A DNA stretch of 64,000 nucleotides from Nitrospinales bacterium (GTDB taxonomy: Bacteria; Nitrospinota; Nitrospinia; Nitrospinales; VA-1): assembly GCA_965262115.1 (NCBI GenBank), contig OZ253496.1, positions 2,080,001-2,144,000 of the forward strand. Reading direction: 5' to 3'. A program made the translations under genes and the position numbers. The notes below the pieces were generated by a model. That model did no database searches. It was not told where the DNA came from and saw nothing but the letters and a program-made list of their open reading frames with translations. How positions within the stretch are numbered: the stretch's first letter is position 1; each line of letters begins with the position of its first letter. Positions 985-58,452 of the stretch are shown here, one piece after another.

Positions 985-1145
985 CCGCAGGGGCAACTGG
1001 GCAAGGGCTGGTCATCCGAAAAAAACGGCTGCTCACCAACTACGGCTGATTTATGCAAACCCCCTCTATCCCCATCAGGGGGAGTTATTAAAGTATTGCG
1101 CTTGAGTGTTCAGTCCGCTTTGCGGTTAATGCAGTGCTGGCAGCA

Positions 1146-1185
1146 TGTGATATCTCCTTCACTTGTTTCATGCCCCGAAGGGGTA
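1146..1185 (-). repeat. 39-nt hairpin element (family C), intact copy
   Basis: Reverse complement begins TACCCCTTCGGGGCATGAA and ends ATATCACA; 1171..1185 is an exact empty copy of the IS110 target. Confidence 0.8.
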
Positions 1186-9434: not shown

Positions 9435-9723
9435 CCACTCGGCGTGGGGCCAACGAGCAAACATTCTATAGCTACCCACACTTTCAGAGCGCATTTAACC
9501 GCTATTACCAGTTACCTGCGGAGGTTCTCCGCCCACTCGGCGTGGGGCCAACGAGCAAACATTCTATAGCTACCCACACTTTCAGAGCGCATTTAACCGC
9601 TATTGCCAGTTACCTGCGGAGGTTCTCCGCCCACTCGGCGTGGGGCCAGCGTGCAATCGCTTTTTCTGGCAGGCAAACGTGTTCTAGGCTCAACAAGCTA
9701 TTGTTAATTGCCTCCACGGCAAG
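9435..9723 (+). repeat. Tandem family A units: two 98-bp copies (one mismatch) plus a third divergent unit
   Basis: CCACTCGGCGTGGGGCCA at 9435, 9533, 9631; units 1 and 2 differ only at 9507/9605. Confidence 0.9.
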
Positions 9724-9957: not shown

Positions 9958-9996
9958 TACCCCTTCGGAGCATGAAGACATAGGTTAAATTTCACA
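9958..9996 (+). mobile_element. 39-nt hairpin element (family C) inserted in a family A end
   Basis: Removing TACCCCTTCGGAGCATGAAG..TTTCACA restores CTGGCCCCACGCCG|AGTGGG, the exact reverse complement of the family A left end. Confidence 0.85.
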
Positions 9997-10484: not shown

Positions 10485-10612
10485 CCACTTGGTGTGCCAA
10501 CGCGACGCCGGACCCAGTGTGCAATGACTTGTTGAGTTAAGCTAAATGGCTAATTATTCCCCTTCTGGGCACGAGGAATTAGGAAGAATATAACGCAGCG
10601 GAGGTTCTCCGC
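10485..10612 (+). repeat. Family A unit carrying a family C insertion (10557..10595)
   Basis: Degenerate CCACTTGGTGTG left end, CCAACGCGACGCCGGAC module, 39-nt TTCCCCTTCTGGGCACGAGG..AATATAACG, right hairpin GCGGAGGTTCTCCGC. Confidence 0.7.
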
Positions 10613-15680: not shown

Positions 15681-15889
15681 GCGCGGGGCCAGCGTGACGC
15701 TGGACTCATTGAGTAATACTTGGCTGGGTGATCAAAAAGTTTTCTCGACTTGACGAGTCCTTGCCAATCCTTCCCACGGGAGCGGGCCAGTAGCCGTGAT
15801 GCTCCTTCCTTAACCTTCGTGAGTTTTTGATATAACCAACATTATTTTCATGCCCTGACAGGGGTAATCCGGGGTTATGCAAAGGTCTC
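15674..15889. repeat. Mosaic of family A unit, family C copies and a solo MITE B end
   Basis: A unit 15674..15786 with CCAGCGTGACGCTGGAC module; partial C at ~15795..15821; C at 15826..15866 (minus); TTATGCAAAGGTCTC at 15875..15889. Confidence 0.7.
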
Positions 15890-21766: not shown

Positions 21767-21842
21767 TATCCCTGTAGGGCACGAAGTACCCGTGCCGGGC
21801 ATGAAGAGGTCACACGCGTCACAGCCACGAAAAAATATCACC
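21767..21842 (+). mobile_element. Family C element nested inside another family C element
   Basis: Outer 20 nt (21767..21786) + 19 nt (21824..21842) = 39 nt; inner 37-nt copy 21787..21823. Confidence 0.8.
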
Positions 21843-21855
21843 GCCCACCGGTCGG

Positions 21856-34406: not shown

Positions 34407-34499
34407 TTAGCGGGGGGGGGGGCATTAGCAACGACTCTTCAAGCCGAGGTGATCGCTTGTTTGCCAGCAAAAGCTATTACCCCTTGTATGTTGTTCATA

Positions 34500-34710
34500 A
34501 GGGGAATTTGTAGTAGTTGTACCTGTGAGCCCTGTGGGAAGCCGGTTTTGTGTTTTCCACAAGCTCCCAGGATTTGATTCAGGGCACAATAGATCGTTTA
34601 CCCCTTGGGCTTTTAAGCCCGTCCCGAAGCGCAGATCGTTGTGTCCTATTTTGATTAACCCGAACAGTTGCCTGGGCCACTGAGCCCGCATCGGCAAGGC
34701 TGGGAGACCA
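34500..34710 (+). ncRNA. IS110 bridge RNA (predicted)
   Basis: 5' hairpin 34522..34571; target loop with TTACCCCT (34598..34605) and GTCCCGAAG (34621..34629); donor loop with ACAGTTGC (34664..34671) and GCAAG (34694..34698); RNA ends approximate. Confidence 0.85.
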
Positions 34711-34714
34711 AATT

Positions 34715-35665
34715 ATGAATCAGAAACCCCATTTTATTGGCATCGATATTTCTAAACTCCATCTGGATGTTGCTGACAGCATGACTCAAGAAACCTGGCA
34801 AACCGCTAACAATGAAGAAGGGATTGCTGGTTTGGTCGAGAGTTTATCCGCCTTAAATCCTCCATTGATCGTTTTGGAAGCCACAGGCGGCTTAGAGATC
34901 CCGTTGGCTTCGGCCCTGGTTGCGGGTCGACTGCCAGTAGCCGTGGTCAACCCGCGACAAGTTCGTGATTTTGCCAAAGCCACCGGGAAACTGGCAAAAA
35001 CCGATGTCATTGATTCTCTTGTGCTGGCCCATTTTGCCAAGGCCGTACGTCCTGAGGTCAGGAAAATCAAAGACGAAGAATCTCTTGAACTCTCAGCTCT
35101 GGTGACACGCCGTCGCCAGTTGATCGAGATGCTGACCAAAGAAAAAACCCGTCTAAAACAAGCTCCAAAATGGATATGTAAAGACATTAAGGAGCATATC
35201 GAATCTCTTAAAAAACGCTTGCGAAAAATCGATGGCGACCTTTCCAGAACCATCAAAAACAGTTCTGCCTGGCGTGAGCACGACCAGATTATACAAAGTG
35301 TTCCCGGTGCCGGTCCCGTTCTGGCTGTCAACCTCTTGGCCGGGGTTCCGGAACTTGGAGTTCTTAATCAGAAGCAAATCGCCGCCCTCATCGGTCTCGC
35401 TCCCCTCAATCGGGACAGCGGAAAGTTCCGGGGCCGCCGGTGTATCTGGGGCGGCCGCGCCAATGTGCGTGCCGCTTTATACATGGCCGCCGTCACTGCC
35501 ATGCAGCATAATCCCGTGATTCGTACCTTTTACACACGCCTCATCGAAAAGGGCAAACCCTTTAAAGTTGCCATTACCGCATGCATGAGAAAGTTATTAA
35601 CGATCATCAATACCATGATCAAAACAAAAACACTCTGGAATGAAAATCTCATTACCAGCACTTGA
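34715..35665 (+). CDS. IS110-family recombinase/transposase
   Basis: DEDD residues in IGID, LEATG, KTD..D; SG motif in RDSGK; KVAITACMRKL. Confidence 0.95.
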   Translation: MNQKPHFIGIDISKLHLDVADSMTQETWQTANNEEGIAGLVESLSALNPPLIVLEATGGLEIPLASALVAGRLPVAVVNPRQVRDFAKATGKLAKTDVIDSLVLAHFAKAVRPEVRKIKDEESLELSALVTRRRQLIEMLTKEKTRLKQAPKWICKDIKEHIESLKKRLRKIDGDLSRTIKNSSAWREHDQIIQSVPGAGPVLAVNLLAGVPELGVLNQKQIAALIGLAPLNRDSGKFRGRRCIWGGRANVRAALYMAAVTAMQHNPVIRTFYTRLIEKGKPFKVAITACMRKLLTIINTMIKTKTLWNENLITST

Positions 35666-35682
35666 CATTTAACACAGTTGCT

Positions 35683-35794
35683 TCGGGGCACGAGATACCC
35701 GTGCCGGGCATGAAGGCAAAGGTAAAATATCACATACCCGTGCCGGGCATGAATTTTAAGGAAGAGGACATCACAGCTATGAAAGAATATCACG
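35683..35794 (+). repeat. Family C cluster: remainder of the IS110-interrupted copy with two nested copies
   Basis: Outer copy 34478..34484 + 35683..35695 + 35776..35794 = 39 nt; inner copies 35696..35734 (39 nt) and 35735..35775 (41 nt). Confidence 0.8.
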
Positions 35795-43045: not shown

Positions 43046-44747
43046 TTTTGCAGGCGTTAAATCAGTATTACGACAGAAAAATGGCATTCTCCAAAGGTGA
43101 ACTCCCACCATACGGGTTTGAAATAAAAAATATTCCTGTCATCATAGAAATAGATACTGATGGGAATTTCGTTCAGACCATCGTTCGTGATAAAAAAGAT
43201 CCAAATACAAATGAGCAGGTACCATGCTCCGTAAAACGAAGTGTCGGCATTAAAAGCAACTTGCTTTGGGATAACACGGAATATGCTTTGGGTATTGATA
43301 CCAGAGACAAGCCAGAACGTGTTGCCAACCAGCACTAGTCTTTTCGCGATAGAATTTCCTCACTTGGTACAGATGATACCAGCATTCAGGCCATCATGAG
43401 TTTTTTGGACAAAATAGATAGAGAGTTTATTCAAAGAGATGCTACCAAATGGGAGACACTAAAAAAGAATCCCAACATCAGTTTTCGTATTGCTGGTGAA
43501 TCTTACCTGATTTGCCAGAAACCAGAATTGCAAGAAATACTTGCCAATGCCAATCATTCAGACAGCGACACAGCCTATTGCTTGCTGACAGGTGAAAGAC
43601 ATCCAATCGAACGATTACTCCAGCTATTAAAGGCGTATGGGGTGCACAGAGTTCTGGGGGGAATATTGTCTCCTTCAACCTGGATTCATTTAGGTCATAT
43701 AGGAAATCTCAAGGTGATAATGCGCCTGCGGGAGAAGAAGCAAGTTTTGCCTATACCACGGCACTGAATCACTTGCTTAGAAAGGGATCATAACAACGTT
43801 TTCAAGTCGGTGATGCTTCAACGATTTTCTGGGCAGAAAAGACTACATCAATGGAATCTGATTTTGGCGCAATTTTTGGTTCGACACCGACACAAATCAA
43901 AGACGACCCTGATGCCTATACAAGGGCAGTAAAAGCAGTTTTTAATTCAGTTTATAAAGGGTGGTATCAAGGCGAAGACGGGGAAGATCGGTTTTATGTT
44001 CTGGGGTTGTCTCCTAATACGTCGCGTATTTCGATTCGATTTTGGCAGGTAGCGACGGTTGCTGAAATATCGCAACGCACCAAACAACACTTCGACTATT
44101 TGGAGATAATTCATGCTCCAAGTGAAATGCCTTATTTGCCGTTATTTTTGCTTTTGGTCAACGTAGCGTCTCAAGGGAAAAGCGAAAACATACCCCCCAA
44201 TCTTGCGGGTGAATTGATGCGAAGCATTCTTGCCGGACAATCCTATCCTCGCACTTTACTATCCGCGGCCGTTCGTCGTTGCAAAGCAGAGAGGAAAGTA
44301 AATTATCAGAGGACCGCTCTCATAAAAGCCTGTATCAATAGTTGTCAATCTAAGGAGGAACTCACAGTGGCTTTAGATACTGAAAATACGAATCCCGCCT
44401 ACCGTCTGGGCAGGCTCTTTTCTGTGCTGGAAAAAATACAGGAAGAAGCACACCCAAAGATCAATGCTACCATAAGAGACCGCTATTACAGTGCGGCATC
44501 CAGCAATCCTGTCAGCGTATTTCCTACTTTGCTGAAACTCAAAAATCATCATCTGAGCAAATTGGAGTTGGTTGGGCGTAAAATCAATCTTGAAAAACTA
44601 ATAGGTGAAATTATGCGCGAAATACTCCCGGACTTACCCGCAAGCCTGAACCTTCAGGACCAGGGACGCTTTGCCGTAGGTTACTACCACCAGCGTCAAG
44701 ATTTTTTCACCAGTAAGCCAACCAAAGAACCAGGAGAGCAATCATGA
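43042..44747 (+). pseudogene. cas8c: Type I-C Cas8c (Csd1), disrupted
   Basis: MILQAL..YY, LWDNTEYALG, LSPN..R.SIRFW, AYRLGRLF, FAVGYYHQ; TAG 43336, frameshift ~43620, TAA 43791. Confidence 0.92.
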
Positions 44748-45658
44748 GTTTAGAAAACCGTTATGATTTTGTATTGTTATTTGATGTTAAAGATGGCAAC
44801 CCGAATGGAGACCCGGACGCAGGAAATATGCCACGCATTGATGCCGAAACGGGTCGAGGCCTTGTCACCGATGTTTGTTTGAAACGTAAGGTGCGTAACT
44901 ATGTGATAATCAATAAAGAACTGTCTCCTCCCTACAATATATACGTTCAGGAAAATGCCATCTTGAACCAGCTAAATGAGGGGGCATATCAAGCCATTGG
45001 AGAACCAGCGAAAGTAGGCCCGAAGAACGACAAAAGAAGAGGATCGTCTGATCCACTCGTTCCACAAGTCCGTCAGTGGATGTGCGAGCAGTATTACGAT
45101 GTTCGAACTTTTGGTGCTGTCATGTCAACAAACGTCAATTGCGGTCAAGTGCGAGGTCCAATACAATTGACTTTCTCACGCTCTATTGACCCCATAGCAG
45201 CTCATGAACATTCAATTACTCGTATGGCGGCTACCGATGAAAAGGAAGCAAAAAAGGTTGCGGAGGCATCGGAAAAAGAGTCAGGTGACAATCGCACCAT
45301 GGGAAGGAAGCATACTGTTCCCTACGGCTTATACCGATGCCATGGTTTTATATCCGCCCATTTAGCACGACAAACCGGCTTTTCAGAAGAAGATCTGGAG
45401 CTATTTTTCACTGCCCTTGAACAAATGTTTGAGCATGATCGTTCAGCCGCTCGTGGAGAAATGACCACTCGCGGCCTGTATGTGTTCAAGCATGAAAGCC
45501 TGCTTGGCAATGCCCATGCCAACAAACTTTCTGAGCGCATCAAGGTAACACTTGAAAATGAACACAAGCCACCGAGAGATTTCGGAGACTATAGCGTAAC
45601 GGTAAATGAATCAGATATGCCGACAGAGGTCGAGTTGATTCAGCGAATTCATGGATAA
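44744..45658 (+). CDS. cas7c: Type I-C Cas7 (Csd2)
   Basis: [41 protein letters not shown]. Confidence 0.95.
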
Positions 45659-45666
45659 GTGCCTAT

Positions 45667-45694
45667 TTGACAATAATGGGGAAGCGCATAGAAT
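45667..45694 (+). promoter_or_regulatory. Putative sigma70 promoter for cas4-cas1-cas2
   Basis: TTGACA-N16-TAGAAT in the only sizeable intergenic gap of the cas operon. Confidence 0.55.
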
Positions 45695-45749
45695 ATAGCC
45701 ACCGCATCAGATAACTAAACCGCTAACTATTGTAAGAGGTCGGTGATTA

Positions 45750-46373
45750 ATGGTGCAAAACGTTTCAATCCCAATTTCCGCTCTCCAACACTATTCATTC
45801 TGCCCGAGGCAGTGTGCGTATATCCATATTGAACAGGTGTGGAGCGACAACTATCTCACGGCCAAGGGTAGCCAGCTGCACGAGCGGGTGCATAGCAGCG
45901 AGACGGAAACACGCGGCAACATCCGCTCCGAGCGCGGGGTACAGGTTTGCTCTGAAAAATTGGGCGTACATGGTCAGCTTGATCTGCTGGAAGTGGATCG
46001 CGGTTCCGGTGCGGTCATGCCTGTTGAATACAAAAGAGGCAAACCCAAGACTGCGGATTGCGACCGTGTTCAGCTTTGCGCCCAGGTCTTGTGTCTGGAG
46101 GAAATGACCGGGCACCGGATAGACAAGGCGGAAATCTGGTATTGGCAGGTTCGGCGGCGCGAATGGATCAATGTTGACGACGCGCTAAGAAAATCAACGC
46201 TGGCGGTTATCAACGCGACAAAAAAATTATTCAGTACAGGGGAATTACCGAAAGCAGTGTATTCCCCTTCGTGCAAAGCCTGCTCGTTTGTTGACCGATG
46301 TTCCCCGCAACAAAAGGATCATAGCGATTCTTATGTAAAAAAAATGTTTCTCAATGAAGAAATTACTCAATAA
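45750..46373 (+). CDS. cas4: Cas4
   Basis: ISALQHY.FCPRQ, PVEYKRGK, QLCAQ, CKACSF..C. Confidence 0.95.
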   Translation: MVQNVSIPISALQHYSFCPRQCAYIHIEQVWSDNYLTAKGSQLHERVHSSETETRGNIRSERGVQVCSEKLGVHGQLDLLEVDRGSGAVMPVEYKRGKPKTADCDRVQLCAQVLCLEEMTGHRIDKAEIWYWQVRRREWINVDDALRKSTLAVINATKKLFSTGELPKAVYSPSCKACSFVDRCSPQQKDHSDSYVKKMFLNEEITQ

Positions 46374-47373
46374 TCTGTACATCACTACTGATGGTAGTTA
46401 TGTACACAAAGAACGTGAAACTATCGTTATAGAGCAGGAAAAGAAAAAAGTATTTCAACTGCCGTTTCACGCGATTGGCAACCTGTTTTGCTTTGGCAGG
46501 GTCATGGTATCGCCTGCGTTAATGGCAGCATGCGGTGAAAAGGGGATTGGACTTTCGTTCTTTACCGGATTTGGAAAGTTTCAAGGGCGGGTGCAGGGAC
46601 CGCAAAGCGGCAATGTGTTATTGCGCCGTACGCAATACCGGTTGGCCGACCATGGACCCGGAATATTGTCACGGCTTTTTGTAGCCGCAAAACTGACAAA
46701 CAGCAGACAAATACTGATGAAACATCAACGCAACCATGGCAACGATGATTCGGTAAAGCAAGTTGTAACCATGCTGGCCGGGTGCATAAGACGACTGGAG
46801 CACCAGACCGATGTCGATCAAATAAGAGGCATAGAAGGAGAGGCCGCCGCCCACTATTTTTCCGTATTCAACCAGTTGGTGCTGGAAGGCCAGCGGAAGA
46901 ACTTTTCATTTAGAGGCAGAACCAAAAGGCCGCCTCTTGACAAAATCAACGCGTTGCTTTCCTTCAGCTACACCTTGTTGACCCATGAAATCGCCTCTGC
47001 GCTACAAGGGGTGGGGTTAGACCCATACGTTGGCTTTTTGCATACGGATCGCCCTGGACGGGTAAGTCTGGCGCTGGACATGCTGGAAGAATTTAGAGCA
47101 TGGTGGTGTGATCGGTTCGTGTTGACTTTAATCAACCGGAATCAAATTAAATCATCAGATTTTATAAACGAAGCCAGCGGTGCTATTCGCATGAAGGACG
47201 ATGCCAGGAAAATGTTTCTTACACAATGGCAAGAACGAAAGCAGGAGAATCTGCAGCATCCCTATATCGGAGAGAAAATTCAGATTGGTCTGTTGCCACA
47301 TGTGCAAGCCCTGTTGTTGGCAAGATTTTTACGCGATGACTTGGAATGCTATCCGCCGTTTTTGGTTCGTTGA
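46354..47373 (+). CDS. cas1: Type I-C Cas1
   Basis: SGNVLLRR.QY, RGIEG.AA..YF, NALLSF.Y, GFLH.DRPGR.SLALD..EEFR. Confidence 0.96.
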   Translation: MKKLLNNLYITTDGSYVHKERETIVIEQEKKKVFQLPFHAIGNLFCFGRVMVSPALMAACGEKGIGLSFFTGFGKFQGRVQGPQSGNVLLRRTQYRLADHGPGILSRLFVAAKLTNSRQILMKHQRNHGNDDSVKQVVTMLAGCIRRLEHQTDVDQIRGIEGEAAAHYFSVFNQLVLEGQRKNFSFRGRTKRPPLDKINALLSFSYTLLTHEIASALQGVGLDPYVGFLHTDRPGRVSLALDMLEEFRAWWCDRFVLTLINRNQIKSSDFINEASGAIRMKDDARKMFLTQWQERKQENLQHPYIGEKIQIGLLPHVQALLLARFLRDDLECYPPFLVR

Positions 47374-47382
47374 AGAGCCGCC

Positions 47383-47676
47383 ATGTTAGTGTTGATAACC
47401 TATGATGTGAGTGTGGCTGGAGCCAAGGGGAGCAGGCGCTTACGGCATATCAGCAAATTGTGCCAGGATTACGGTATTCGTGCTCAGTATTCGGTTTTCG
47501 AGTGTGAAATAACTCCAGCCCAATGGGTGGATTTAAAATCCGCATTGCTGGGGGCCTATGATGCTGATCTCGACAGTTTACGGTTTTATTATCTTGGATC
47601 TAACTGGAAGCGAAAGGTAGAGCACCATGGAACAAAACAGACGCCGGACGTGCTTCGAGACCCACTGGTTTTATGA
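47383..47676 (+). CDS. cas2: Cas2
   Basis: LITYDV, RAQYSVFEC, DSLRFY.LG. Confidence 0.96.
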   Translation: MLVLITYDVSVAGAKGSRRLRHISKLCQDYGIRAQYSVFECEITPAQWVDLKSALLGAYDADLDSLRFYYLGSNWKRKVEHHGTKQTPDVLRDPLVL

Positions 47677-47852
47677 CCGCTAACGGTCAGTTATCATGAA
47701 ATCAACGCAAGGTTAGCGGGGCCGCAAACACTTGATTTTTAAGAATATAGCTTCAGATAGAGTGTTATGCGTTGATCTTTTGCAGTTTGGAATTATCGGT
47801 TAGCGTTATATTGCCTGTTCCTTCAACGATAACAATCGGGTAGGATAGGGCT
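47677..47852 (+). promoter_or_regulatory. CRISPR leader
   Basis: Non-coding between cas2 and repeat 1; CCGCTAAC/GTTAGCGG inverted motif, third GGTTAGCG at 47798, IHF-consensus match at 47725..47737. Confidence 0.75.
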
Positions 47853-47950
47853 GTCGCCCCCCGTGCGGGGGCGTGGATTGAAACTTAAATTTACAGGCTG
47901 GACCATGGAATCATCCGAGTCGCCCCCCGTGCGGGGGCGTGGATTGAAGT
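47853..47950 (+). CRISPR. Minimal type I-C array: 2 repeats, 1 spacer
   Basis: 32-bp GTCGCCCCCCGTGCGGGGGCGTGGATTGAAAC at 47853, degenerate terminal copy (..GAAGT) at 47919; 34-bp spacer 47885..47918. Confidence 0.92.
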
Positions 47951-47951
47951 G

Positions 47952-48125
47952 CTACATACCGATGTCCGTGCAGGCTATCGTCAAAGGTTGCGGTGTTTCC
48001 CGTTTCACGCTCGTGGCAGGCGGCGACATAGAGAAACCCGAGTCTCGGGTAATAGCCTTTACCGCCTTTGGCACGGAAGATTCGAGAGAAATGGTTTCGG
48101 GTGGGACGAGGAATAAAATTTTCAT
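47952..48125 (-). pseudogene. Possible N-terminal remnant of a gene ending at the CRISPR array
   Basis: MKILFLVPPET.. start resembles B12-binding radical SAM N-termini, AAGGA upstream, but the ORF stops after 57 aa. Confidence 0.3.
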
Positions 48126-48290
48126 GGGATTGAACAACGTTTTCCTTTAGAATCAGACTTCCGAGAATCTCTGAAATTGCTTTTGGCCATGAGCGGCCCT
48201 TATTTTAAGGGCCTGCGAGTTGCCTTAGAGAAAATTACCGAATACACAGAATCCCCTATTACGTTACCACAGAAAATCTGAAAGGACGGT

Positions 48291-49274
48291 ATGATGCCCA
48301 TCGTTACCGTGACCAATATGTTTCCCGAGGCCGCTTTGGAAAAACTGGCGCCGCATTGTGACCTGCGAACCAACCAGACGGAAAGTCCGCCAACCGCCGA
48401 AGTTCTTAAAAAACATGTTTCTGAAAGCGTGGTGATCGTCACTTACTTATCGGACAAAATCGGCCAGGACATTATTGATTGTGGAAAGAATTTGAAGCTC
48501 ATCGCCAATTATGGGGCCGGATTCAACAATATTGACGTGGCGCATGCCGCTAAAAAGGGCATCTGGGTGACGAATACCCCGGGAGTTCTGCATGAGACCA
48601 CTGCCGATTTAACCTGGGCGATGATTCTGGGGGCGGCCCGGTGCATTGTTCCCGCCGAACGCTTCACTCGCGAAAACCGGTTCAAGGGCTGGCAGGCGAA
48701 AATGTATCTGGGAGGCGATGTCTATGGCAAAACTCTGGGCGTTATCGGTTGTGGTGAAATCGGCTCGGCGGTTGCCCGTAGAGCTTCGGGTTTCAATATG
48801 CGGGTTCTCTACCATAACCGCACCCGATTATTGGAAGAAAAAGAACGTGATTGGAACGCAATCTACACTTCGTTGGAGGAGCTGCTCCGGCAATCCGATT
48901 TTGTCACGGTTCACGCGCCTTTGACCAAAGCGACCCAACACATGATCGGCAAAGAACAATTTTTAATGATGAAGCCCACCGCTTATTTCATCCATACCGC
49001 CCGGGGAAAAGTGGTGGACGATGAGGCTCTGGTCGAAGCATTGAAAGCAGGAAGAATCGCCGGAGCGGCGCTGGATGTTTATGAAAACGAGCCAGCGCTC
49101 AGCCAAGGCATGACCGAGTTGGAGAACCTGATGTTGCTCCCGCATATTGGCAGTGCCAGTCATGAGACACGAGATAAAATGGCAGACCTTGTGGCGGATA
49201 ACGTGTTGGATGCTTTGGCAGGTAAAACCCCACGTTGTCTTGTGCCGTCGTGGAAAAAACAGGTTACACGTTGA
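48291..49274 (+). CDS. D-2-hydroxyacid dehydrogenase (glyoxylate/hydroxypyruvate reductase type)
   Basis: NTPGVL.ETTAD, GCGEIG, TARG, LDVYENEP, PHIGSA. Confidence 0.92.
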   Translation: MMPIVTVTNMFPEAALEKLAPHCDLRTNQTESPPTAEVLKKHVSESVVIVTYLSDKIGQDIIDCGKNLKLIANYGAGFNNIDVAHAAKKGIWVTNTPGVLHETTADLTWAMILGAARCIVPAERFTRENRFKGWQAKMYLGGDVYGKTLGVIGCGEIGSAVARRASGFNMRVLYHNRTRLLEEKERDWNAIYTSLEELLRQSDFVTVHAPLTKATQHMIGKEQFLMMKPTAYFIHTARGKVVDDEALVEALKAGRIAGAALDVYENEPALSQGMTELENLMLLPHIGSASHETRDKMADLVADNVLDALAGKTPRCLVPSWKKQVTR

Positions 49275-50361
49275 AACGAAAATGCATGATGTCGCCGTCC
49301 TGGACGACATAATCCTTGCCCTCGACCCTTAATTTCCCCGCGTCTTTAATAGCGGCCTCCGATTTATGCTGAACCAGGTCTTCCAGGCTATAGACTTCGG
49401 CGCGAATGAATCCTTTTTCGAAGTCGGTATGGATCGCTCCCGCCGCTTGTGGAGCTTTCGAATTTTTCGGGATCGTCCAGGCGCGGTTTTCTTTACCTCC
49501 TGCTGTAAAAAACGTGACCAGTTTGAGCAGTCCATAACCGGCAGAGATCATGCGGTCGAGTCCGGTTTCGGCCAGGCCCATTTCCTCCATAAACATTTGC
49601 TGTTCTTCCAGGTCTTCGATCTCCATAATTTCACCCTCAATTTTTCCTGCCAGAGCCACCACTGATGAGCCGTCCTGTTCAGCAATCTTTTTGACCTTTT
49701 GCACCCGTTCGTTTTCTGTGTCTCCAGGGTCCATGACATTGCAGATATACAGAACGGGTTTGGCGCTCAAAAGAGTCAGGCTTTTTACGAACTGTTTTTG
49801 TTCGTCATTGAGACAGGTAACGGTTTTGGCTGGTTGGTTTTGATCGAGAGCTTCGGACAGCTTGGCGAGTACTTCCACTTGCATGCGTGCTTCCTTGTCG
49901 CCAGATTTAGCCAGTTTCTCAATCCTGGTTTTTCTGCGGTCAAGGGATTCCATATCGGCGATCATCAATTCGGTGTTGATGGTGTCGATATCGGAAGCCG
50001 GGTCGATGACATCGCTGACATGGGGGACATTGCTATCCTCGAAACAGCGCACCACATGGGCGACGGCATCCACCTCGCGGATGTGTCCGAGAAATTTATT
50101 ACCCAGGCCTTCTCCCTTGGATGCCCCTTTGATGAGTCCAGCGATATCGACAAACTCCATGGTTGTGGGAACAACTTTATCGGCCTTGATGTGCCGGGAG
50201 ATGGTATCCAGGCGCTTATCAGGAACGGGAACGATGCCGCTATTGGGTTCGATGGTGGTGAACGCATAATTTCCTGCCTGAGCTTTGGTACGTGTCAAAG
50301 CGCCGAAGAGGGTTGATTTCCCCGCATTTGGGAGGCCGACAAGGCCGCAGGTGAATCCCAT
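49264..50361 (-). CDS. ychF: Ribosome-binding ATPase YchF
   Basis: GLPNAGKST, DIAGL..GAS.GEGLGNKFL, IHTDFEKGFIRAE, DGD..HFRFNV. Confidence 0.96.
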   Translation of the reverse strand: MGFTCGLVGLPNAGKSTLFGALTRTKAQAGNYAFTTIEPNSGIVPVPDKRLDTISRHIKADKVVPTTMEFVDIAGLIKGASKGEGLGNKFLGHIREVDAVAHVVRCFEDSNVPHVSDVIDPASDIDTINTELMIADMESLDRRKTRIEKLAKSGDKEARMQVEVLAKLSEALDQNQPAKTVTCLNDEQKQFVKSLTLLSAKPVLYICNVMDPGDTENERVQKVKKIAEQDGSSVVALAGKIEGEIMEIEDLEEQQMFMEEMGLAETGLDRMISAGYGLLKLVTFFTAGGKENRAWTIPKNSKAPQAAGAIHTDFEKGFIRAEVYSLEDLVQHKSEAAIKDAGKLRVEGKDYVVQDGDIMHFRFNV

Positions 50362-50403
50362 AAAACGTTAATTCCTTTTTTATAAGGTTGGCTCCCCTTA
50401 GCA

Positions 50404-50626
50404 GAGAGCTTTGCATAAGTCGATAAAACAGAAAAGCGAGATTCTTCACGGAGCCTGTGCTGAGCTTGTCGAAGCATTCAGAATGACAGCAACAAGATTC
50501 TTCACTGCGTTCAGAATGACAATACTGGGCCATTTTGTCATTCTGAGGAACAAGGTGACAAAGACATGATATTTTTCTTTAAACTTCGTGCCCCGCAGGG
50601 GTAATCTTGGGTTATGCAAAGCTCTT
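50404..50626. mobile_element. Expanded MITE family B copy with family C insertion (50565..50603)
   Basis: Left TIR GAGAGCTTTGCATAA, degenerate right TIR, imperfect TSD (CCCTTAGCA vs TCCTTAACA); extra internal hairpins; 39-nt insert relative to the 4617 copy. Confidence 0.8.
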
Positions 50627-50699
50627 CCTTAACAGGGGAGGTAGCTAGCAAGAACCTTTTAAGCCGAGATAACTCTTTGCTTACCAGCAAAAGTGATTG

Positions 50700-52112
50700 C
50701 TATCTGCCCCCACGGCGAGTGGGGAAGGGCTTTAAAAAAAACAGGGATAAGAATACCAGAAAAGCGTAGCCAGCGATGACTTTAAAAAACATCTGTGGGG
50801 TCATGAAACTGAACAGGGTGAGAAAGATAACCGCTCCGACACTGCCATAGGCCCCTGCCAGGCCGGCCAGCTTCCCGGTGAGGGGTTTGGATATCTGTGG
50901 AATCACTGCAAAACAGGCGCCGTTACCTGCTTTTAAGAAGATGGATCCCACTACCGCAAGGGTGATGGCACTGGAAAGCTGCCAACTGGAGTCAATCTCT
51001 CCCATTAACCAGTGACTCACCATTCCCCCAAGGACCATGATGAAAAGAGTTCTGCGGCGACCAAACCGGTCAGAAATCCAACCTCCTCCGGGCCGAGCCA
51101 CCAGGTTCATGAAAGCATAACTGGCCCCCAGCATTCCCGCTAATCCCACAGAAAGTGAAAACGTTGTTTCCATAAACTGCGGGAACATCGAAACGACCGC
51201 CAACTCGGAACCGAATGTAAGAGAATAGACCATGCTCAATATAGCGATCTGGCTGAACAAATATTTTTCTTCTTCAGGCACGGGGTGTTGCAGTCGAGGA
51301 ATGTTGACTTTCCAGCATCGCAATACGTTCAGGAAAAAAAGCAATACCATGCCAAGAATCAAAACCAGGGCAAGGGAGTTGGAAATCAAACCAAACGGAT
51401 GCCCGGAAAGCTTCCAGATGAATAAAGACAGGGTTCCATAAATGGGTAAGAGGAGAAGGATTTGCAGGATCAGATCCCGGCGCGAAGTGACTTCAATCAC
51501 GCCATGCAGGTCGACCAGGAAATCCTGACCTTTCCCTGGAGCATCAGGGCAAAATCGATAATAAACCCCCGCCCAGATAAGACAGGAAAGTCCCGAAAGA
51601 CCAGTAGCCACCCGCCACCCGGACTCTTCAGGCAAGAGAAAGGCAATAAGAGGAAGGGAAAACGCCGCGAACGCCGAACCGAAGTTGCCCCAACCTGCGT
51701 AAATACCCTGCGCCGTTCCCATCTTTTCCGGCGGGAACCACTCAGCGACCATTTTTATACCCACCACGAATCCGCCACCGACGATCCCCATCAACAAGCG
51801 GGTGACCAGCAATGTTTTGAAGTCCTGCGACATGGCGAATGCAAAACATACCAGTGCGGAAAAGATCAATAGTCCGCTGAACACTTTTTGCGGGCCGTGT
51901 TTATCAACCCAGAAACCGATAACGATTCTGGCGGGAATGGTCAAAACCACATTGCAGACCATCAAGATACTGATCTCGGCGGAAGACAGGTTCAAAGCGC
52001 GCATGATCGTGGTGTTGAAGGGCGCCATGTTAAACCAGGCCACAAAGGTCAGAAAAAACGCGATCCAGGTCAGGTGCAGGGTGTTCCATTGGATTTTGCT
52101 GAAACCTAACAT
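50700..52112 (-). CDS. NarK/NRT2-family nitrate/nitrite MFS transporter
   Basis: TIPARI, GIYAGWGNFG nitrate signature, FGSELAVVS, ARPGGGWISDRFG. Confidence 0.88.
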   Translation of the reverse strand: MLGFSKIQWNTLHLTWIAFFLTFVAWFNMAPFNTTIMRALNLSSAEISILMVCNVVLTIPARIVIGFWVDKHGPQKVFSGLLIFSALVCFAFAMSQDFKTLLVTRLLMGIVGGGFVVGIKMVAEWFPPEKMGTAQGIYAGWGNFGSAFAAFSLPLIAFLLPEESGWRVATGLSGLSCLIWAGVYYRFCPDAPGKGQDFLVDLHGVIEVTSRRDLILQILLLLPIYGTLSLFIWKLSGHPFGLISNSLALVLILGMVLLFFLNVLRCWKVNIPRLQHPVPEEEKYLFSQIAILSMVYSLTFGSELAVVSMFPQFMETTFSLSVGLAGMLGASYAFMNLVARPGGGWISDRFGRRRTLFIMVLGGMVSHWLMGEIDSSWQLSSAITLAVVGSIFLKAGNGACFAVIPQISKPLTGKLAGLAGAYGSVGAVIFLTLFSFMTPQMFFKVIAGYAFLVFLSLFFLKPFPTRRGGR

Positions 52113-52120
52113 TCGGTTGC

Positions 52121-52300
52121 CTCTTTCGGGATTTCCTTGAGGGCAATGATAGAGTTAAAAACAGTCATGGGCGGAAGATAACGGCGAGGAAAGAGACGAT
52201 TTCTGTGACCTGTTTTCGAGATTTGCTTGAGGGCAATGGTGAAGTTAAAAACAGTCATGGGCGGAAGATAACGGCGAGGAAAGAGATGGTTCTATGATCC
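52121..52300. repeat. 90-bp imperfect tandem duplication upstream of the NarK-type gene
   Basis: Units 52121..52210 and 52211..52300 share an identical core AGTTAAAAACAGTCATGGGCGGAAGATAACGGCGAGGAAAGAGA. Confidence 0.88.
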
Positions 52301-52316
52301 GTTTATTGTCACCGGT

Positions 52317-52628
52317 TTATGGCTGGTTGGTCATCATTTGATGGGACTTCACCACACCGTGCTGGTCAAAAACGATGATCATATCTTTGGTGATATCGCT
52401 GCCTAGGGAGTTGTAATAATTATATTCATAAGTCCAGATCCGGCTCCCATTCTGGACGCCCTTTTTAAAAGGCGGTCCAAACATGGACTGAACTTCCTTA
52501 TGGGTTGTTGTTCCTGCAACAATATTTTTATAAAGTGACTCATCGAAGTTTTTTCCGGCAGTGCCACAACCGTATGCGAAAAGCAAACCGATCAGGAGAA
52601 GAATATTCACGACGAAATTTGTTTTCAT
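52317..52628 (-). CDS. SmpA/OmlA (BamE-like) lipoprotein
   Basis: Lipobox AYGC, GTTT..EV...FG.P, W.Y, FD..GVV. Confidence 0.75.
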   Translation of the reverse strand: MKTNFVVNILLLIGLLFAYGCGTAGKNFDESLYKNIVAGTTTHKEVQSMFGPPFKKGVQNGSRIWTYEYNYYNSLGSDITKDMIIVFDQHGVVKSHQMMTNQP

Positions 52629-52642
52629 TTTGCAGTTCCTCA

Positions 52643-54169
52643 TTATGATGCCACAATATTATATTTTTCCCGATGCAGTTTCGGGTTCACCTGAAAGGTG
52701 ATTTCGATATTGTTTTGTTTTTCCATTTCTTCAAGAAAACTGCTCTCTTCTTCGAATAGCATGTCATAAATCGTTGGATGCACTTCGATGTCGATTTTCT
52801 TTTTAGTGATATTGTCGGTTCCCCGCCGCTGAATTTCACGGATGATTTCGTAACAGACCGTCGAAGTGCTCTTGATATATCCTTTGCCCTCACAGTAATC
52901 GCAGGGATCGCAAAGGGTTTGTGCCAGGCTTTCGCGCACGCGCTTGCGGGTCATTTCCACCAGCCCCAATTCGGAAATTTTAAGGATGCGGGTTCGTGAG
53001 CGGTCTGATTTCAGTGCCTGCTTGAGTGCGTTGGACACCATCTCCTTGCTTTCTTCTTTAGCCATGTCGATGAAATCGACGATGATGATACCGCCGATGT
53101 TCCGGAGCCGAAGCTGATACACGGTTTCTTTAGCTGCCTCCAGATTGGTTTTCAGGATGGTGTCTTCCGGATCGTTGTGGCCGACATATTTTCCGGTGTT
53201 GACATCAATGGCAACCAGGGCTTCGGTCTGGTCGATGATGATATAGCCGCCGGATTTGAGCCAGATGGTTCGGCCCAGAGCGCGACTGATATCCATCTCA
53301 ATGCCATAGTGATCGAAGATCGGCATCGGGTCTTTATACTGCTCAATTTTATCCGATAAATGTGGGAGATAGGTGGAGCAGAACTCCAAGCATTTGGTGA
53401 AATCCGACTTCGAGTCGATCACCAGCCGTTCAGTATCTTTGGTGAAAAGATCACGGATAGACCGAAAGATCAGGTTCAGATCCTCGTAAACCAGATGCGG
53501 GGCGCTTAAGTTTTCAGATTGGTTTTTCAGGTTTTCCCAAAGGCGGTGAAGAAACTTGAGATCCGAGTCAAAATCTGCGCGCGTGGCATCCTGCCCGGCG
53601 GTTCGGACAATATAGCCTCCACCGGGGTTGCCGATTTCGCTGAGAAGTTTTTTCAGCCGTTCTTTTTCGTCTTCATCTTCAATACGACGGGAAACACTGA
53701 TGTGGTTAACTGTGGGCATATAGACCAGATAGCGTCCGGGCAGGGTGATGTAATTGGTGATGCGTGCGCCTTTAGTTCCCAGCCGATTCTTGGCAACCTG
53801 CACCAGAATCTCCTGACCTTCCTGTAAAATATCTTGAATACGGATGTCATGATTGGGCCGACCAGGTTTTCCGGCAAAGGGGTTTTCTTTTTCATCAGTC
53901 AGAGGAGGAGGGTTCAGTTCGTCTTCGAGTCCGAGCATATCGACGACATCGATATCTCCGACGTATAGAAAGCCAGCTTTTTCCAGCCCGATATCGACAA
54001 AGGCCACCTGCATTCCGGGAAGAATCTTGGTGACTTTGCCCTGATAAATATTCCCAACAATGCCCTTGTTGGTTTTATGTTCGATAAACAATTCCGAGAC
54101 CTGATTGTTTTCCATCAGGGCAACACGAATTTCGCGCTGGTTGGAATTTATCAGTACTTCAGAAGACAT
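52643..54169 (-). CDS. rng: Ribonuclease G (Rne/Rng family)
   Basis: GNIY.G.V..ILPGMQ.AFVDIG, IDVNTG, LRLRNIGGIII.DFIDM, EMTRKR, CDYC. Confidence 0.92.
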   Translation of the reverse strand: MSSEVLINSNQREIRVALMENNQVSELFIEHKTNKGIVGNIYQGKVTKILPGMQVAFVDIGLEKAGFLYVGDIDVVDMLGLEDELNPPPLTDEKENPFAGKPGRPNHDIRIQDILQEGQEILVQVAKNRLGTKGARITNYITLPGRYLVYMPTVNHISVSRRIEDEDEKERLKKLLSEIGNPGGGYIVRTAGQDATRADFDSDLKFLHRLWENLKNQSENLSAPHLVYEDLNLIFRSIRDLFTKDTERLVIDSKSDFTKCLEFCSTYLPHLSDKIEQYKDPMPIFDHYGIEMDISRALGRTIWLKSGGYIIIDQTEALVAIDVNTGKYVGHNDPEDTILKTNLEAAKETVYQLRLRNIGGIIIVDFIDMAKEESKEMVSNALKQALKSDRSRTRILKISELGLVEMTRKRVRESLAQTLCDPCDYCEGKGYIKSTSTVCYEIIREIQRRGTDNITKKKIDIEVHPTIYDMLFEEESSFLEEMEKQNNIEITFQVNPKLHREKYNIVAS

Positions 54170-54256
54170 GGGTTTCCTGTGTCAGATTGGGTGAATGAAA
54201 AATTATAACATGGGGGCGGGTCAAACCTTGAGAAAAAACCAGACGGGGCGTTTTTG

Positions 54257-55357
54257 CTAATGCATTGACCTTCGCATTTCAACGTTGAGAAGCAGTCCTA
54301 CCGCGAAAAAATGGGTAATGAGCGAAGAGCCACCATAACTCAGGAAAGGAAGAGGAATACCGGTGATGGGAAACAGGCCGATGGTCATGCCAACATTGAA
54401 GATGACGTAAAATGCGATGGAGCTGATGAGCCCGAGAGAAAGAAAAAAACCAAACCGGTCCGCGGCCCTGAATGCGATGTTTAAACCTTTCAGGATGATA
54501 AAAAGGAATAAAGATAAAAGAACGATCACACCAAAAAAACCGGTTTCCTCGGCGAAGACTGAAAAAATAAAGTCGGTATGTTTTTCCGGCAGGAAGTTGA
54601 GTCGGCTTTGGGTTCCCGCAAGCAGACCTTTTCCCCAGAACCCGCCCGACCCGATAGCGATTTTGGACTGGATAGAATGGTAGCCTGCTCCGAGCGGATC
54701 CAATTCCGGGTTGAACAAGGTTAGAAGCCGGGTTTTCTGATAGTCCTTGAGGAAGAGCCAGAGTGCCGGAGCCAGCATGAGCCCACCGGTGAAAAGTTTT
54801 ATCACGGTCATTCTTTCCATTTCGATGGTGGCTATGAAAACCAGGAAAATGAAGAAAACCATCATGGTGGTGCCGAGGTCGGGCTGGACAACGATGAGCC
54901 CTCCAAGAGCCGCCGTCATCAATGTCGGGATGATCAGATCCTTCAACGTATATTGGTTCGGCATCTTTACCGATTCGAAGTATTTAGCCAGGACAATGAT
55001 GAGCGACACTTTGGCGAACTCGGAAACCTGAATACTGATGGAGCCCATATGAATCCAGCGGCGCGAACCCGACACGATCACTCCATGGAGCAGTACATAA
55101 GCGAGAGCCAGCAGGGTAAAAAAATAGATGAGGTAGGCATAACGACTGAACAGGCGGTAATCCAGCGCCAGAGCGATGAGCATGGCCACCATCCCACAGC
55201 CGATCCAGTAAATTTGTTTGATATAAAGGCTGCGGAAAAAAGCTTCCGGCCGAGCGTGGTTGGCACTGTAAATGGTCACCACGCCGAGAATAGCTATTCC
55301 CAGGCAGGTCAGGAAAAACAACCAGTTGAAATTGGAAACCAGGTGCCGACCAATCAT
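54257..55357 (-). CDS. rodA: Rod shape-determining SEDS protein RodA
   Basis: QPDLGT, YQK.R, DPLGAGY..IQS.IAIGSGG, LPEKHTDFIF, LPFLSYGGSS. Confidence 0.93.
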   Translation of the reverse strand: MIGRHLVSNFNWLFFLTCLGIAILGVVTIYSANHARPEAFFRSLYIKQIYWIGCGMVAMLIALALDYRLFSRYAYLIYFFTLLALAYVLLHGVIVSGSRRWIHMGSISIQVSEFAKVSLIIVLAKYFESVKMPNQYTLKDLIIPTLMTAALGGLIVVQPDLGTTMMVFFIFLVFIATIEMERMTVIKLFTGGLMLAPALWLFLKDYQKTRLLTLFNPELDPLGAGYHSIQSKIAIGSGGFWGKGLLAGTQSRLNFLPEKHTDFIFSVFAEETGFFGVIVLLSLFLFIILKGLNIAFRAADRFGFFLSLGLISSIAFYVIFNVGMTIGLFPITGIPLPFLSYGGSSLITHFFAVGLLLNVEMRRSMH

Positions 55358-55947
55358 AGGATAATTTTATCATAGCGCATTGCAAATTATGGATGTTTTC
55401 ACTCCCTCCATGAATTCTGCAACCTCATTGGGTAGCTGGCATGGCTAGGGTTGACGGCCATGGTCGTTATCTCGATTCCAGCCGAACAGGTTCTCCGTAT
55501 TATCAGACCTTACAACAGCATGCTGCCTGTACCTGGATCAAGATATGCGTAGGCATTACCTGGGAAACAGAGAATTGATAGAGTTGAATTATTTTTGGGT
55601 GTTGCACCCGGATTGCGTATGCTATTAAAGAATGAGAATGATTGATTGAGTTGGAGGACGATGATGAACAATCCGGACAAGGATCCTAAGCAAGAGAAGC
55701 CTCCTGGAAAGAAGGAGGAAAAAGATAGCCCCGGCAGTGAAAACAAACCTTCGCGCCTTGCGGAACGTAAAGGCCAGTGCCCGGAATTTCCCTTCAGGAG
55801 AAAACCGGTTTAGCGGGTGCTTCGTTTTTTTGTTACCCGGGTCTTGCCTGGGCCTGTTTTCCCGGAAGCCTCTTCTTGAATCGGAACGTTTTCAGGCATT
55901 GCTTGAGGAAAAATGAACTTTTAACCAGAAAGACCGGATTCTCCAAA

Positions 55948-56463
55948 ATGAAAGATTGCCCCTGCGGTTCGAATTTTCCTTTCACCGATTGTTGTGCTCC
56001 GTTGATTCGGGGCACCGGTTTTCCGGATACGGCGGAGGATTTGATGCGGTCGCGTTATACCGCCTTCACCCAGAAAAACTGGGAATATCTGGTGATCACC
56101 AGTCATCCGGAAGAAAAAAAAGAAATGGCTAAACTGGAGGAAGACCTGATCCGGGATGGGGTGGTTTGGAAAAGACTGGAGATTATGGATACCCGGACTG
56201 GAGGTCAGGACGATTCTGAAGGGCAGGTGGATTTTGTCGCACATTATACCAGGGAAGGCGTCGAACAAACCCTGCGAGAATCCTCCCGTTTTTATAAAAT
56301 CAATGGCCGTTGGGTCTATAGCCGTAAAGATTCCACTCTGCCCCCTGTCCCGTCTTCACCCCGGAAGAAACCCAAAACCTTTGTTCGTGACGAAGTTAAA
56401 ATAGGTAGAAACGATCCTTGCCCTTGTGGAAGTGGGAAAAAGTATAAAAAATGTTGTGGCTAG
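55948..56463 (+). CDS. YchJ-family protein with N- and C-terminal SEC-C motifs
   Basis: [43 protein letters not shown]. Confidence 0.9.
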
Positions 56464-56497
56464 CCTACAGATTGGGTTGAGGCTAGACTATAAAACA

Positions 56498-56665
56498 GAG
56501 ACCTTTGCATAACCCCGAGATTCTTCGTCACGTTGTTCCTCAGAATGACAAAACAGCCCTTTATTGTCATGCTGAGCTAGTGATACTCGACCTTTGCCTT
56601 CTTGCCCCGGAGGGGTATGTCGAAGCATCTCGCTTTTCTGCTTTATCGACTTACGCAAAGCTCTC
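56498..56665. mobile_element. MITE family B copy with family C insertion (56579..56617)
   Basis: TIRs GAGACCTTTGCATAA / TTACGCAAAGCTCTC; exact 9-bp TSD TATAAAACA; 168 bp = 129 + 39. Confidence 0.9.
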
Positions 56666-56699
56666 TATAAAACAGGGGCTCTTTCGGAAAAAAGCCTGG

Positions 56700-57500
56700 A
56701 AAATCCTTCTCTTGAAAATGTCTTTAGATGCACCCTCTCCCTGTGACAGAAAAACTTCAAGATGGTGTTAAAAATCAAGAGGTTTTTCAGGTTGCATACT
56801 TTCTAATCGGGAACCCCAAAGGCCTTTAATTACCCCGTATTAGAAAATGATTACCCAGTGTTTCCCACAGGTTTTACACAAATAGTGTGGAAAAGATGTT
56901 TTTCTAGCGAGGGTCCCATTGAAACCCTTTGCAGACAAGGAAATGAGGGGTCGTGGAGAAGAAGCCCCCCGTCTCATAAGGTGTGCTCGATCATGTTTTC
57001 TTTATACGCCTAATACATTGGCTTAGGAGGGGGAAGCAAAGACTTGATTTTGGTTAGTCCAAACATATTAGGAGCAGAACAGGTGTCAAAATTCCGCTAT
57101 CGTGTTCCCCCTACATTTGGCTTTCCAGAGGGGCAAGTCACGGTGTCGATGATGTAATGTTTTTTGACAGCCTGATTATCAGGGGAAAAGCATGACGGGA
57201 CTTTGATACCCTTCTCTCGCTTTTATTCTAGAGATCCTCTCAAAAACTCTTTCCGTTTTAAAATTTGTGGAAAACTCGCAAAGACTTCCTTCAACGTCAA
57301 TGGTTTTTCGACATTGCAGAGGGCTCGCATTAACTTATTGAAAATAAAGGTCAATTTTTTTACCATGTAAAAAAATCTATTAATCTGAGAAATTAAAATA
57401 TCGAATTTCTGATACCTGAAAAACTTTCCACAAATAACTCACAAGTAGAGGTCGTGAGAGAACTTGAAACATTACGCTTTAGTCTGAGGCGTGAATGAAT
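56700..57500. promoter_or_regulatory. Non-coding region with clustered DnaA-box-like 9-mers (candidate oriC)
   Basis: TTWTNCACA matches at 56872 (+), 56886 (-), 57266 (-); one-mismatch boxes at 56861, 57424; AT-rich 57330..57420. Confidence 0.45.
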
Positions 57501-57520
57501 ATTTTTATTCCTGAAGCACG

Positions 57521-58450
57521 TCAATTATTTCGTGGGGGCTCATACCCGTGTGTTTGTAAAAAAGTTTCCATATCCTGTGGGAGCGGCGCGCGAAATGACA
57601 GGTTCGAACCTTTGATCGGATGTTTCAGTTCCAGTTTATGGGCGTGCAGAGCCTGCCTGGGCATCTTTAGGTCTGTGGATTTCCCACCATAGAGTTGGTC
57701 TCCGATTATAGGATGATGGATCGAAGCCAAATGCACCCGAATTTGATGGGTTCTACCGGTTTTGGGCCAGAGCTTGAGGTAGGACCAAATTTTACAACGG
57801 TGTACGACTTGGTATTCCGTAGAGGCTTCCCGACCGTTTGAGGCTTTGGTGTCCATTTTTTTGCGATGTATTTTATGACGGCCGATGGCGGCATGAATCG
57901 AACCTGCGTCCTTTTTAACATTGCCTTTTACGATCGCCAGATATTCTTTGCGAATCTCGCGTTTCTTGAATTGTGCCGCCAGGTTTTTGTGGGCGGCTTC
58001 GGTTTTGGCCACCAATACCAGTCCCGAAGTATCCTTATCCAGCCGGTGAACAATGCCGGGCCGCTCGACCCCACCGATCCCCGGCAGGTCTTTGCAATGA
58101 TGTAGTAAGGCGTTGACCAGCGTCCCGGCAGAATGTCCCGGTGCCGGGTGAACCACAATGTCCGCCGGTTTATCCAAGGCAATTAAAAACTCGTCTTCAA
58201 AAATAATATTCAGCGGAATGTCTTCCGCGACAGTATCAAGAGGAACCGGGGCGGGTACCTGAACCGTGACCTGGTCTCCCTCCCGGACTTTATACCCGAC
58301 AGATCGAACTTCACCGTTGACTGTCACCCGGCCTTCAACAATTAGTTTTTTCAATCGCGACCGGCTGATCTCTGTCTGTCGGGCGGACAGAAAAACATCG
58401 AGCCGTTCCCGACTGGAAACTGAATCTACTTTAAATTTGTATTGTTCCAT
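57521..58450 (-). CDS. rluD: RluA/RluD-family pseudouridine synthase with S4 domain
   Basis: RLDVFL..SRS, GTLVNALL, GIVHRLDKDTSG, TGRTHQIRVH, GDQLYG. Confidence 0.92.
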   Translation of the reverse strand: MEQYKFKVDSVSSRERLDVFLSARQTEISRSRLKKLIVEGRVTVNGEVRSVGYKVREGDQVTVQVPAPVPLDTVAEDIPLNIIFEDEFLIALDKPADIVVHPAPGHSAGTLVNALLHHCKDLPGIGGVERPGIVHRLDKDTSGLVLVAKTEAAHKNLAAQFKKREIRKEYLAIVKGNVKKDAGSIHAAIGRHKIHRKKMDTKASNGREASTEYQVVHRCKIWSYLKLWPKTGRTHQIRVHLASIHHPIIGDQLYGGKSTDLKMPRQALHAHKLELKHPIKGSNLSFRAPLPQDMETFLQTHGYEPPRNN

Positions 58451-58452
58451 TG

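Follow-up and report, generated by a model that had tools for sequence, protein, structure and literature searches.

Cyanobacterial small dispersed repeats (SDRs) are 21 to 27 nt long, show nested self-insertion and compensatory structure, and are limited to particular clades; SDR1 to SDR8 of Nostoc and its relatives were reportedly described by Elhai et al. in 2008. An RNA-based movement was proposed for these repeats; to our knowledge no mover of them has been named, nor, since the SDR report, any enzyme or intermediate in the movement of repeats shorter than 50 nt. Co-conversion of flanking bases is known from intron homing and retrohoming; we know of no report of an end-joining pair or of flank changes for SDRs. 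The consulted sections of PMC4390886 describe precise insertion of SDR5 into HIP1, those of PMC2884548 and PMC3116915 mention SDRs, and PMC3184786 does not mention them.

The element described here is a non-coding, 39- to 41-nt mobile repeat of Nitrospina-type bacteria, recognized in a window of 64,000 nt (bases 2,080,001 to 2,144,000 of one 2.68-Mb contig, genome G000). A profile of its first 19 bases recovered 383 copies on both strands of this genome, as against 2 and 1 matches in control scans of the reversed and the complemented sequence (a single strand each), and a chance origin of the copies is excluded. A 3' end was recognizable in 258 copies, of which 249 were 39 to 41 nt long (40 nt in 73 and 41 nt in 80). 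The initial annotation had taken most copies to be exactly 39 nt; this is indeed the commonest class, but genome-wide it comprises only 96 of the 258 copies, with the two longer classes nearly equal to it, and the literal consensus offered there had no match in the window. The copies are neither the ends of a longer insertion sequence (IS), since an IS110 inserts inside them, nor members of an Rfam family, with no Rfam match within the 64-kb window. A literature search, the scope of which took in few subscription journals, returned no description of the element, nor of flank changes for such repeats.

The full pattern occurred in 19 of 22 genomes of the same genus and in none of the 18 other genomes sampled, and the 18-nt start was found in 41 of 120 genomes of the phylum, representing 8 of 30 genera. 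Of 127 GTDB loci with the element, each of the 80 listed bore a title of Nitrospina, Nitrospinaceae, Nitrospinales or Nitrospinota. In another family, genomes with few copies hold them in host repeats next to ordinary genes. Three phage contigs carry one copy each at gene ends (L290:3001-3040, L291:3001-3039 and L292:3001-3039), and phages could be carriers of the element between genera; the copy in L291 spans the terminus of an ORF with a RusA-like appearance on visual inspection. In another family (L416, L417, L418 and L419; genomes G048 and G049), a variant whose 3' end differs was observed, in every case within one and the same host repeat. Within G000, the first 55 kb (G000:C1:1-55000) differ from the remaining chromosome in having a CA microsatellite and extended tandem arrays of low complexity, contain almost no element copies and are possibly foreign or misjoined. 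The small genome G009 of the same genus has no element and one MutS-family match, versus two in four element-rich genomes, which may be mere genome reduction.

The closest known counterpart of this element is the group of cyanobacterial SDRs. Like them, it is very short and non-coding, inserts precisely into other repeats without duplication, nests in its own copies and in other repeats, shows compensatory structure and is limited to one clade. It differs from them in length (39 to 41 nt versus 21 to 27 nt) and in phylum, the comparison being one of descriptions and not of sequences. With REP/REPIN-RAYT and IS200/IS605 systems, as presented in the consulted sections of PMC6006769, PMC3116915 and PMC3733652, the element shares a short hairpin, bases at the 5' foot that pair with the end, and the lack of duplication; as in the REP accounts given there, it is mainly intergenic and the target of an IS110. 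However, judged by column frequencies, it has no GTAG/GTGG or CGTC tag at the hairpin foot of the kind described for REPs in those sections of PMC3733652, it occurs as single copies and not as the inverted doublets of REPINs, and element-rich complete genomes yielded no Y1 HUH gene, which in REP-RAYT systems is present and flanked by the repeat. In contrast to IS200/IS605, it shows neither a lagging-strand bias nor excision scars. It also has neither the terminal inverted repeats nor the target duplication of a miniature inverted-repeat element (MITE), and it lies outside both the REP/RAYT and the MITE classes. As in intron homing and retrohoming, the filled allele converts an empty one and brings flanking bases with it; unlike introns, the element encodes no endonuclease or reverse transcriptase (RT), measures only 39 to 41 nt, uses many unrelated target families and has tracts of only a few bases.

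At every position claimed for a copy in the window the element was present, in places decayed or nested (Table 1). The entry given as 34478/35683 does hold the element, but as one copy split by an IS110 and by two further copies. Contigs aligned to window positions 44500 to 58500 gave no clean skip of copies 50565 or 56579 among the joints listed. Two other repeats were seen in the window: at 9435 to 9630, two near-identical 98-nt tandem units of REP-like repeats stand at a synteny break with relatives, and at 52124 to 52291 there is a 90-nt direct repeat, the second copy of which is skipped in contigs of two other runs.

Table 1. Copies of the element and associated features in the 64,000-nt window
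Feature	Position	Strand	Remarks
40-nt copy in repeat D1	1146-1185	-	Orthologues empty in G013 and in a contig of run X6
Flank bases +3 and +4 of copy 1146, edited	1142-1143	-	CT here; GG in empty orthologues and empty D1 repeats
39-nt copy	9958-9996	+	In CCACGCCG|AGTGG hairpin repeat; empty sister sites exist
39-nt older copy, decayed start	10557-10595	+	Common to G013 and G007
Decayed copy-in-copy composite	15795-15866	-	Inner copy 15826-15866, then remainder of outer copy; by eye
Decayed nested pair	21767-21843	+	Inner copy from 21787, after base 20 of outer copy
Bases 1-7 of split copy	34478-34484	+	End in CT core used by IS110
IS110-family element in hairpin of split copy	34485-35682	+	Recombinase ORF 34715-35665
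Predicted bridge RNA of IS110	34530-34700	+	Sequence match and predicted loop
Bases 8-20 of split copy	35683-35695	+
39-nt copy	35696-35734	+	Inserted after base 20 of split copy
41-nt copy	35735-35775	+	Head-to-tail with copy 35696-35734
Bases 21-39 of split outer copy	35776-35794	+
39-nt copy	50565-50603	-	In GAT|TCTT site of REP-like repeat
39-nt copy, A16:T39 subtype	56579-56617	-	In CGACA|AGCTC site

The initial annotation had proposed a mobile unit of very small size with exact insertion, no duplication of the target and a preference for hairpin repeats, and both junctions and orthologues support this. Exact removal yielded a 24-nt junction present elsewhere in the genome (at most 2 mismatches allowed) in 107 of 256 copies, tandem cases included, versus 10, 2, 1 and 3 junctions for removals that were 1, 2, 3 and 4 nt shorter and 22, 5, 2 and 1 for removals that were 1 to 4 nt longer. 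Clean presence/absence at orthologous loci, which had been set beforehand as a test, was seen as well: comparison of G000 with parts of three genomes (1.40 Mb of G013, 1.26 Mb of G019 and 0.10 Mb of G007) gave 535 anchored pairs, including 24 distinct filled/empty pairs with a gap-free empty junction and no duplication, one of them being a tandem copy-number difference. The three empty-site junctions named at the outset (copies 9958, 56579 and 50565) were correct; exact removal restores the length of an empty site, but fixed flank substitutions are present in several host repeats, including that of copy 1146.

Among complete copies, 178 of 272 had at least one of four repeat motifs at a distance of no more than 60 nt, as against 15% of random intergenic places, and the targets were mostly REP-like repeats and the element's own copies, with self-insertion at several fixed positions and head-to-tail. 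The target motif is loose, with W at -3 and -2, S at +2, Y at +3 and C at +5. Across 217 distinct junction windows, A stood at -3 in 27 of 39 copies of the G6-C10 hairpin subtype and in 27 of 149 of the C6-G10 subtype, a link that may reflect either target specificity or lineage history. The variable middle was rejected as a target guide (130 sites, |z| at most 1.4, with no mutual-information or best-match signal), as was a hammerhead-like or box C/D-like reading of it, for which the order was wrong by eye and conservation was absent. In addition, the end of orfA in an IS3-family element holds a 41-nt copy in all 17 IS3 copies found, and omission of this copy gives an IS3-like end. The IS3-family element (G000:C1:695213-696536 and 16 further copies) has multiplied with the 41-nt copy aboard, and 10 of the 17 also carry an IS110 inside that copy.

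Pairing joins the two ends of the element. Besides the hairpin covariation at 6:10 noted on first reading, a further pair was found between base 16 and the last base, which was Watson-Crick in 318 of 351 distinct variants and of four types (TA 205, CG 108, AT 4 and GC 1, besides TG 21, CA 9 and other 3); four Watson-Crick types at one pair would be hard to reach by descent alone. In 73 aligned 39-mers picked for diversity, 96.1% of cells paired, versus 37 to 59% in slid controls, and both sides had changed at 16:39 in 28 of the 73 (a count inflated by the relatedness of variants), a score that 0 of 500 shuffles reached. With pair 1:15 invariant, the 16:last pair would stack the last base on the first and so bring the two ends, each with its flank, next to each other. 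On the opposite strand, every position of the stem pairs (G-T in place of an A-C mismatch) and the hairpin closes with a G-N-A triloop, a motif that is stable in DNA. Whole-strand folds were no more stable than shuffles (z from -0.03 to 0.63), and since these energies are unremarkable, the end helix, which consists of two pairs, probably needs a protein.

Filled sites differ from empty ones a few bases beyond the 3' junction. Between filled and empty sister repeats of G000, differences were found at +3 in 37 of 119 comparisons, at +4 in 38 and at +5 in 21, as against 2 to 14 at each of the other positions from -13 to +16, and 20 at -14. Fixed base changes 2 to 6 nt from the 3' junction were present at filled sites of six host repeats. 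For copies inserted after base 9 of another copy, GG had become CT in 40 of 55 filled versus 0 of 536 empty sites in three genomes (16 of 18 versus 0 of 308 at other loci), and the same GG-to-CT change occurred in repeat D1 (17 of 23 versus 0 of 143). Insertion after base 20 of another copy was accompanied by a flank change in 17 of 23 filled versus 0 of 84 empty sites, and three more sites gave 9 of 37 versus 0 of 47, 7 of 7 versus 0 of 27 and 7 of 17 versus 0 of 29, the members of one host family not being independent in any of these counts. The edited form never occurred at empty sites of the six host repeats, which argues that edited copies are not precisely excised. No significant flank change was seen in 19 of 27 host clusters, and an A-to-C change at +5 in repeat D9 was dropped as a flank edit because empty sites with C exist. 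At CGACA sites, a C-to-G change at -2 (29 of 41 filled versus 0 of 33 empty) covaries with the loop base and may represent one lineage.

Orthologues gave a similar result, in that positions +3 to +5, which had been chosen from the G000 sister repeats, differed in 19 of 72 cells versus 72 of 888 elsewhere (p 1e-5). In 6 of the 24 orthologous pairs, of which at most a minority had the direction of change polarized with an outgroup, the filled allele has the edited flank of its family, the resident repeat being otherwise retained; the G019 orthologue of window position 21787, where the inner copy hosts a further copy with the GG-to-CT change, adds a seventh case. The edits shift the flank towards the target motif, base +1 is usually the target's own, and the CT change was found with 34 different inner sequences. 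For CT in copy-in-copy insertions, a possible source is an abundant REP-like repeat in which the five left bases are identical and the edited flank comes next (more than 100 empty sites and 1 filled). A similar two-sided source was found for one more change, that is, for two of the six, and none for the other four; an abundant repeat with matching left and edited right flanks is a plausible first donor. Since the edits accompany many inner sequences and appear at orthologous resident repeats, donor flank bases travel with the element, at least in these families. A general flank memory from -3 to +5 at unrelated sites was rejected, for it came mostly from the GAT|TCTTC family and was weak after its removal. 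Together, the end-joining pair and the flank changes argue against simple cut-and-paste.

We tentatively favor, at somewhat less than even confidence, a spread of the element by copy-in from a folded single strand that bears its flanks. In the postulated single-stranded donor, which ends in the C-GNA-G hairpin, the fold would set the two ends, and hence the two flanks, side by side, so that the flanks could pair with both sides of a look-alike empty junction and form a four-way junction. A nicking enzyme would cut the empty strand at this four-way junction, and repair synthesis would then proceed through the element and, 3' of it, through as many as about five bases of the donor, with the donor copy not being excised. 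Such copy-in would be the simplest single account of the fixed ends, the terminal hairpin with its 16:last pair, the edits and the lack of scars, all of which are observed, as is the absence of target duplication. Against it, a filled allele can also be transferred, flanks included, when repeats undergo ordinary gene conversion, and mosaics and whole host-plus-element blocks indicate much ordinary recombination. A simple continuous tract leaves the retained target base +1 unexplained, the predicted sharing from -3 to +5 at unrelated sites is strong only in one large family, the hairpin-plus-pairing layout fits HUH-type elements too, and no enzyme was found among the families searched.

The search for a mover took single protein families one by one, and no tested enzyme tracked the element across genomes. 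The candidates put forward by the initial annotation (Y1 HUH, RT and IS110) were either not found or broken in element-rich genomes. G000 has 9 DUF559 and 7 small GIY-YIG matches beside repeats that serve as element targets. DUF559 was rejected as a mover, as it occurs in 12 of 22 same-genus genomes, was not found at E<=1e-15 in G007 or G004 and is common in families without the element; the small GIY-YIG family, present in 40 of 41 genomes, is uninformative for tracking the element and was likewise set aside, and its genes are flanked by their own repeats of a REP-like family. Tyrosine recombinases, with two near-full-length matches per complete genome and a few partial ones, were also discarded. 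Among genes flanked by two element copies, no nuclease-like candidate was recognized by eye. The window itself contains a DUF559 gene (about 60509 to 60835) flanked by its own purine/pyrimidine hairpin repeats (60449 to 60991), and whole repeats around DUF559 and GIY-YIG genes are present or absent between close genomes, with no RAYT found.

The main rival to copy-in, which we regard as possible, is that the element travels as a circle of single-stranded DNA without flanks, cut and joined by an HUH enzyme like that of IS200/IS605 or RAYT, the flank changes being separate, later gene conversion; the enzyme could have diverged, could have disappeared or could arrive occasionally through transfer. 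This would agree with the lack of target duplication, the DNA-type GNA hairpin, the loose target motif that, on the hairpin strand, precedes the insertion point on its 5' side (+2 S, +3 Y and +5 C on the + reading), the 23 head-to-tail junctions genome-wide and circular folding, in which end-pair probabilities were near 0.45. The bases just 5' of the hairpin foot, moreover, pair with the element end like the guides of IS608 and REPs in the consulted section of PMC6006769. However, the Y1 HUH family was found neither in G000 nor in the 98%-complete, element-rich G007 and G013, while its 7 of 22 same-genus genomes include the element-free G009, and Y2 HUH was represented by no intact gene, only by a fragment in 1 of 23 genomes. 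There is no replication-strand bias (178 leading versus 191 lagging copies, p 0.53, with the origin placed by GC skew only), and no excision scars were seen, despite edits that bring flanks closer to the target motif. A circle would also require repeated microhomology events for the same GG-to-CT change in two unrelated hosts.

Movement via RNA, in which a flank-bearing transcript would undergo reverse splicing or target-primed reverse transcription, is improbable. The one-sided flank changes do resemble exon co-conversion in retrohoming, the fold places the flanks side by side as in an intron, and T-G outnumbers C-A at the end pair (21 versus 9), but wobble counts over all pairs favor neither strand, and the GNA triloop is the DNA-stable motif noted above. 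Furthermore, no intact RT was detected in three element-rich genomes, G000 having a broken gene and G007 and G019 yielding none (7 of 22 other genomes have one), copies show no orientation bias to neighboring genes (88 versus 89), and the window has no Rfam match.

It is quite improbable that the element has no mover of its own and is a functional or neutral hairpin that spreads only as host repeats carry it along, through slippage and gene conversion without bias. Whole host-plus-element blocks are indeed present or absent between genomes, mosaics and tandem arrays are common, and the proximity of most complete copies to four repeat motifs would be expected of a passenger. Against this stand the exact ends retained in 147 flank clusters, 103 of which are single sites, the copies inside an IS3 gene and three phage contigs, the nested self-insertion at several fixed positions and the compensatory end pair. 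Mobilization by the resident IS110 recombinase and its bridge RNA is very unlikely, for although G000 has 24 recombinase matches with nearly all ends inside the element and the edited dinucleotide CT is like the IS110 core, the crossover falls at base 7|8 and not at the element ends, the guides match the hairpin and not the varied targets, and the protein is split or fragmentary in G013 and G019 and was found in only 3 of 22 same-genus genomes, G007 (98% complete, 79 pattern matches) not among them, so that IS110 exploits the element and is not its mover.

The IS110 in the window is better read as a second parasite, with a predicted bridge RNA aimed at the element hairpin. In G000, 25 of 26 IS110 left ends follow the element's first bases, with the CT core after base 7, and all 26 right ends precede the remainder of the element; one left end (G000:C1:2144783) lies inside the non-coding end of another IS110 and not in the element. 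The window IS110 has DEDD and Tnp20 domains, and its orthologous site in G013 has no IS. In the predicted loop of its non-coding left end, a left target guide (34597 to 34605; 9 nt identical to the element start) faces a right target guide (34623 to 34629; 7 nt complementary to element bases 6 to 12), and donor guides are predicted near 34664 to 34671 and 34693 to 34698. This layout of target guides in a loop is as in the consulted sections of PMC11208160. With the IS621-type IS110 described there, the window IS110 has in common the DEDD and Tnp20 domains, the CT core and target guides in the non-coding end; it differs in that its target is a micro-element and not a REP, and its RNA is predicted from sequence alone.

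Returning to copy-in, it would make up, in its widest form, a mode of mobility without known counterpart, in which an end-joining fold uses the flanks as a microhomology guide for one-way copy-in into empty look-alikes, rewrites neighboring bases through an unrecognized nuclease or host repair, and is parasitized by IS110; we consider this full combination doubtful. The same copy-in could also underlie the movement of cyanobacterial SDRs. The element itself is a real, ultra-small mobile repeat whose mechanism is now sharply constrained. The family sets hard constraints (exact ends, the end-joining pair, the target motif, flank changes and no excision scars) that span hundreds of copies and close genomes and separate cut-and-paste by a circle from copy-in by a template, and flank transfer offers a reporter read-out for finding the enzyme. 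The IS110 on the element hairpin is a clear case of a bridge RNA, as predicted, tuned to another mobile element. If copy-in is true, the element would represent a minimal natural system of precise insertion and short-patch editing.
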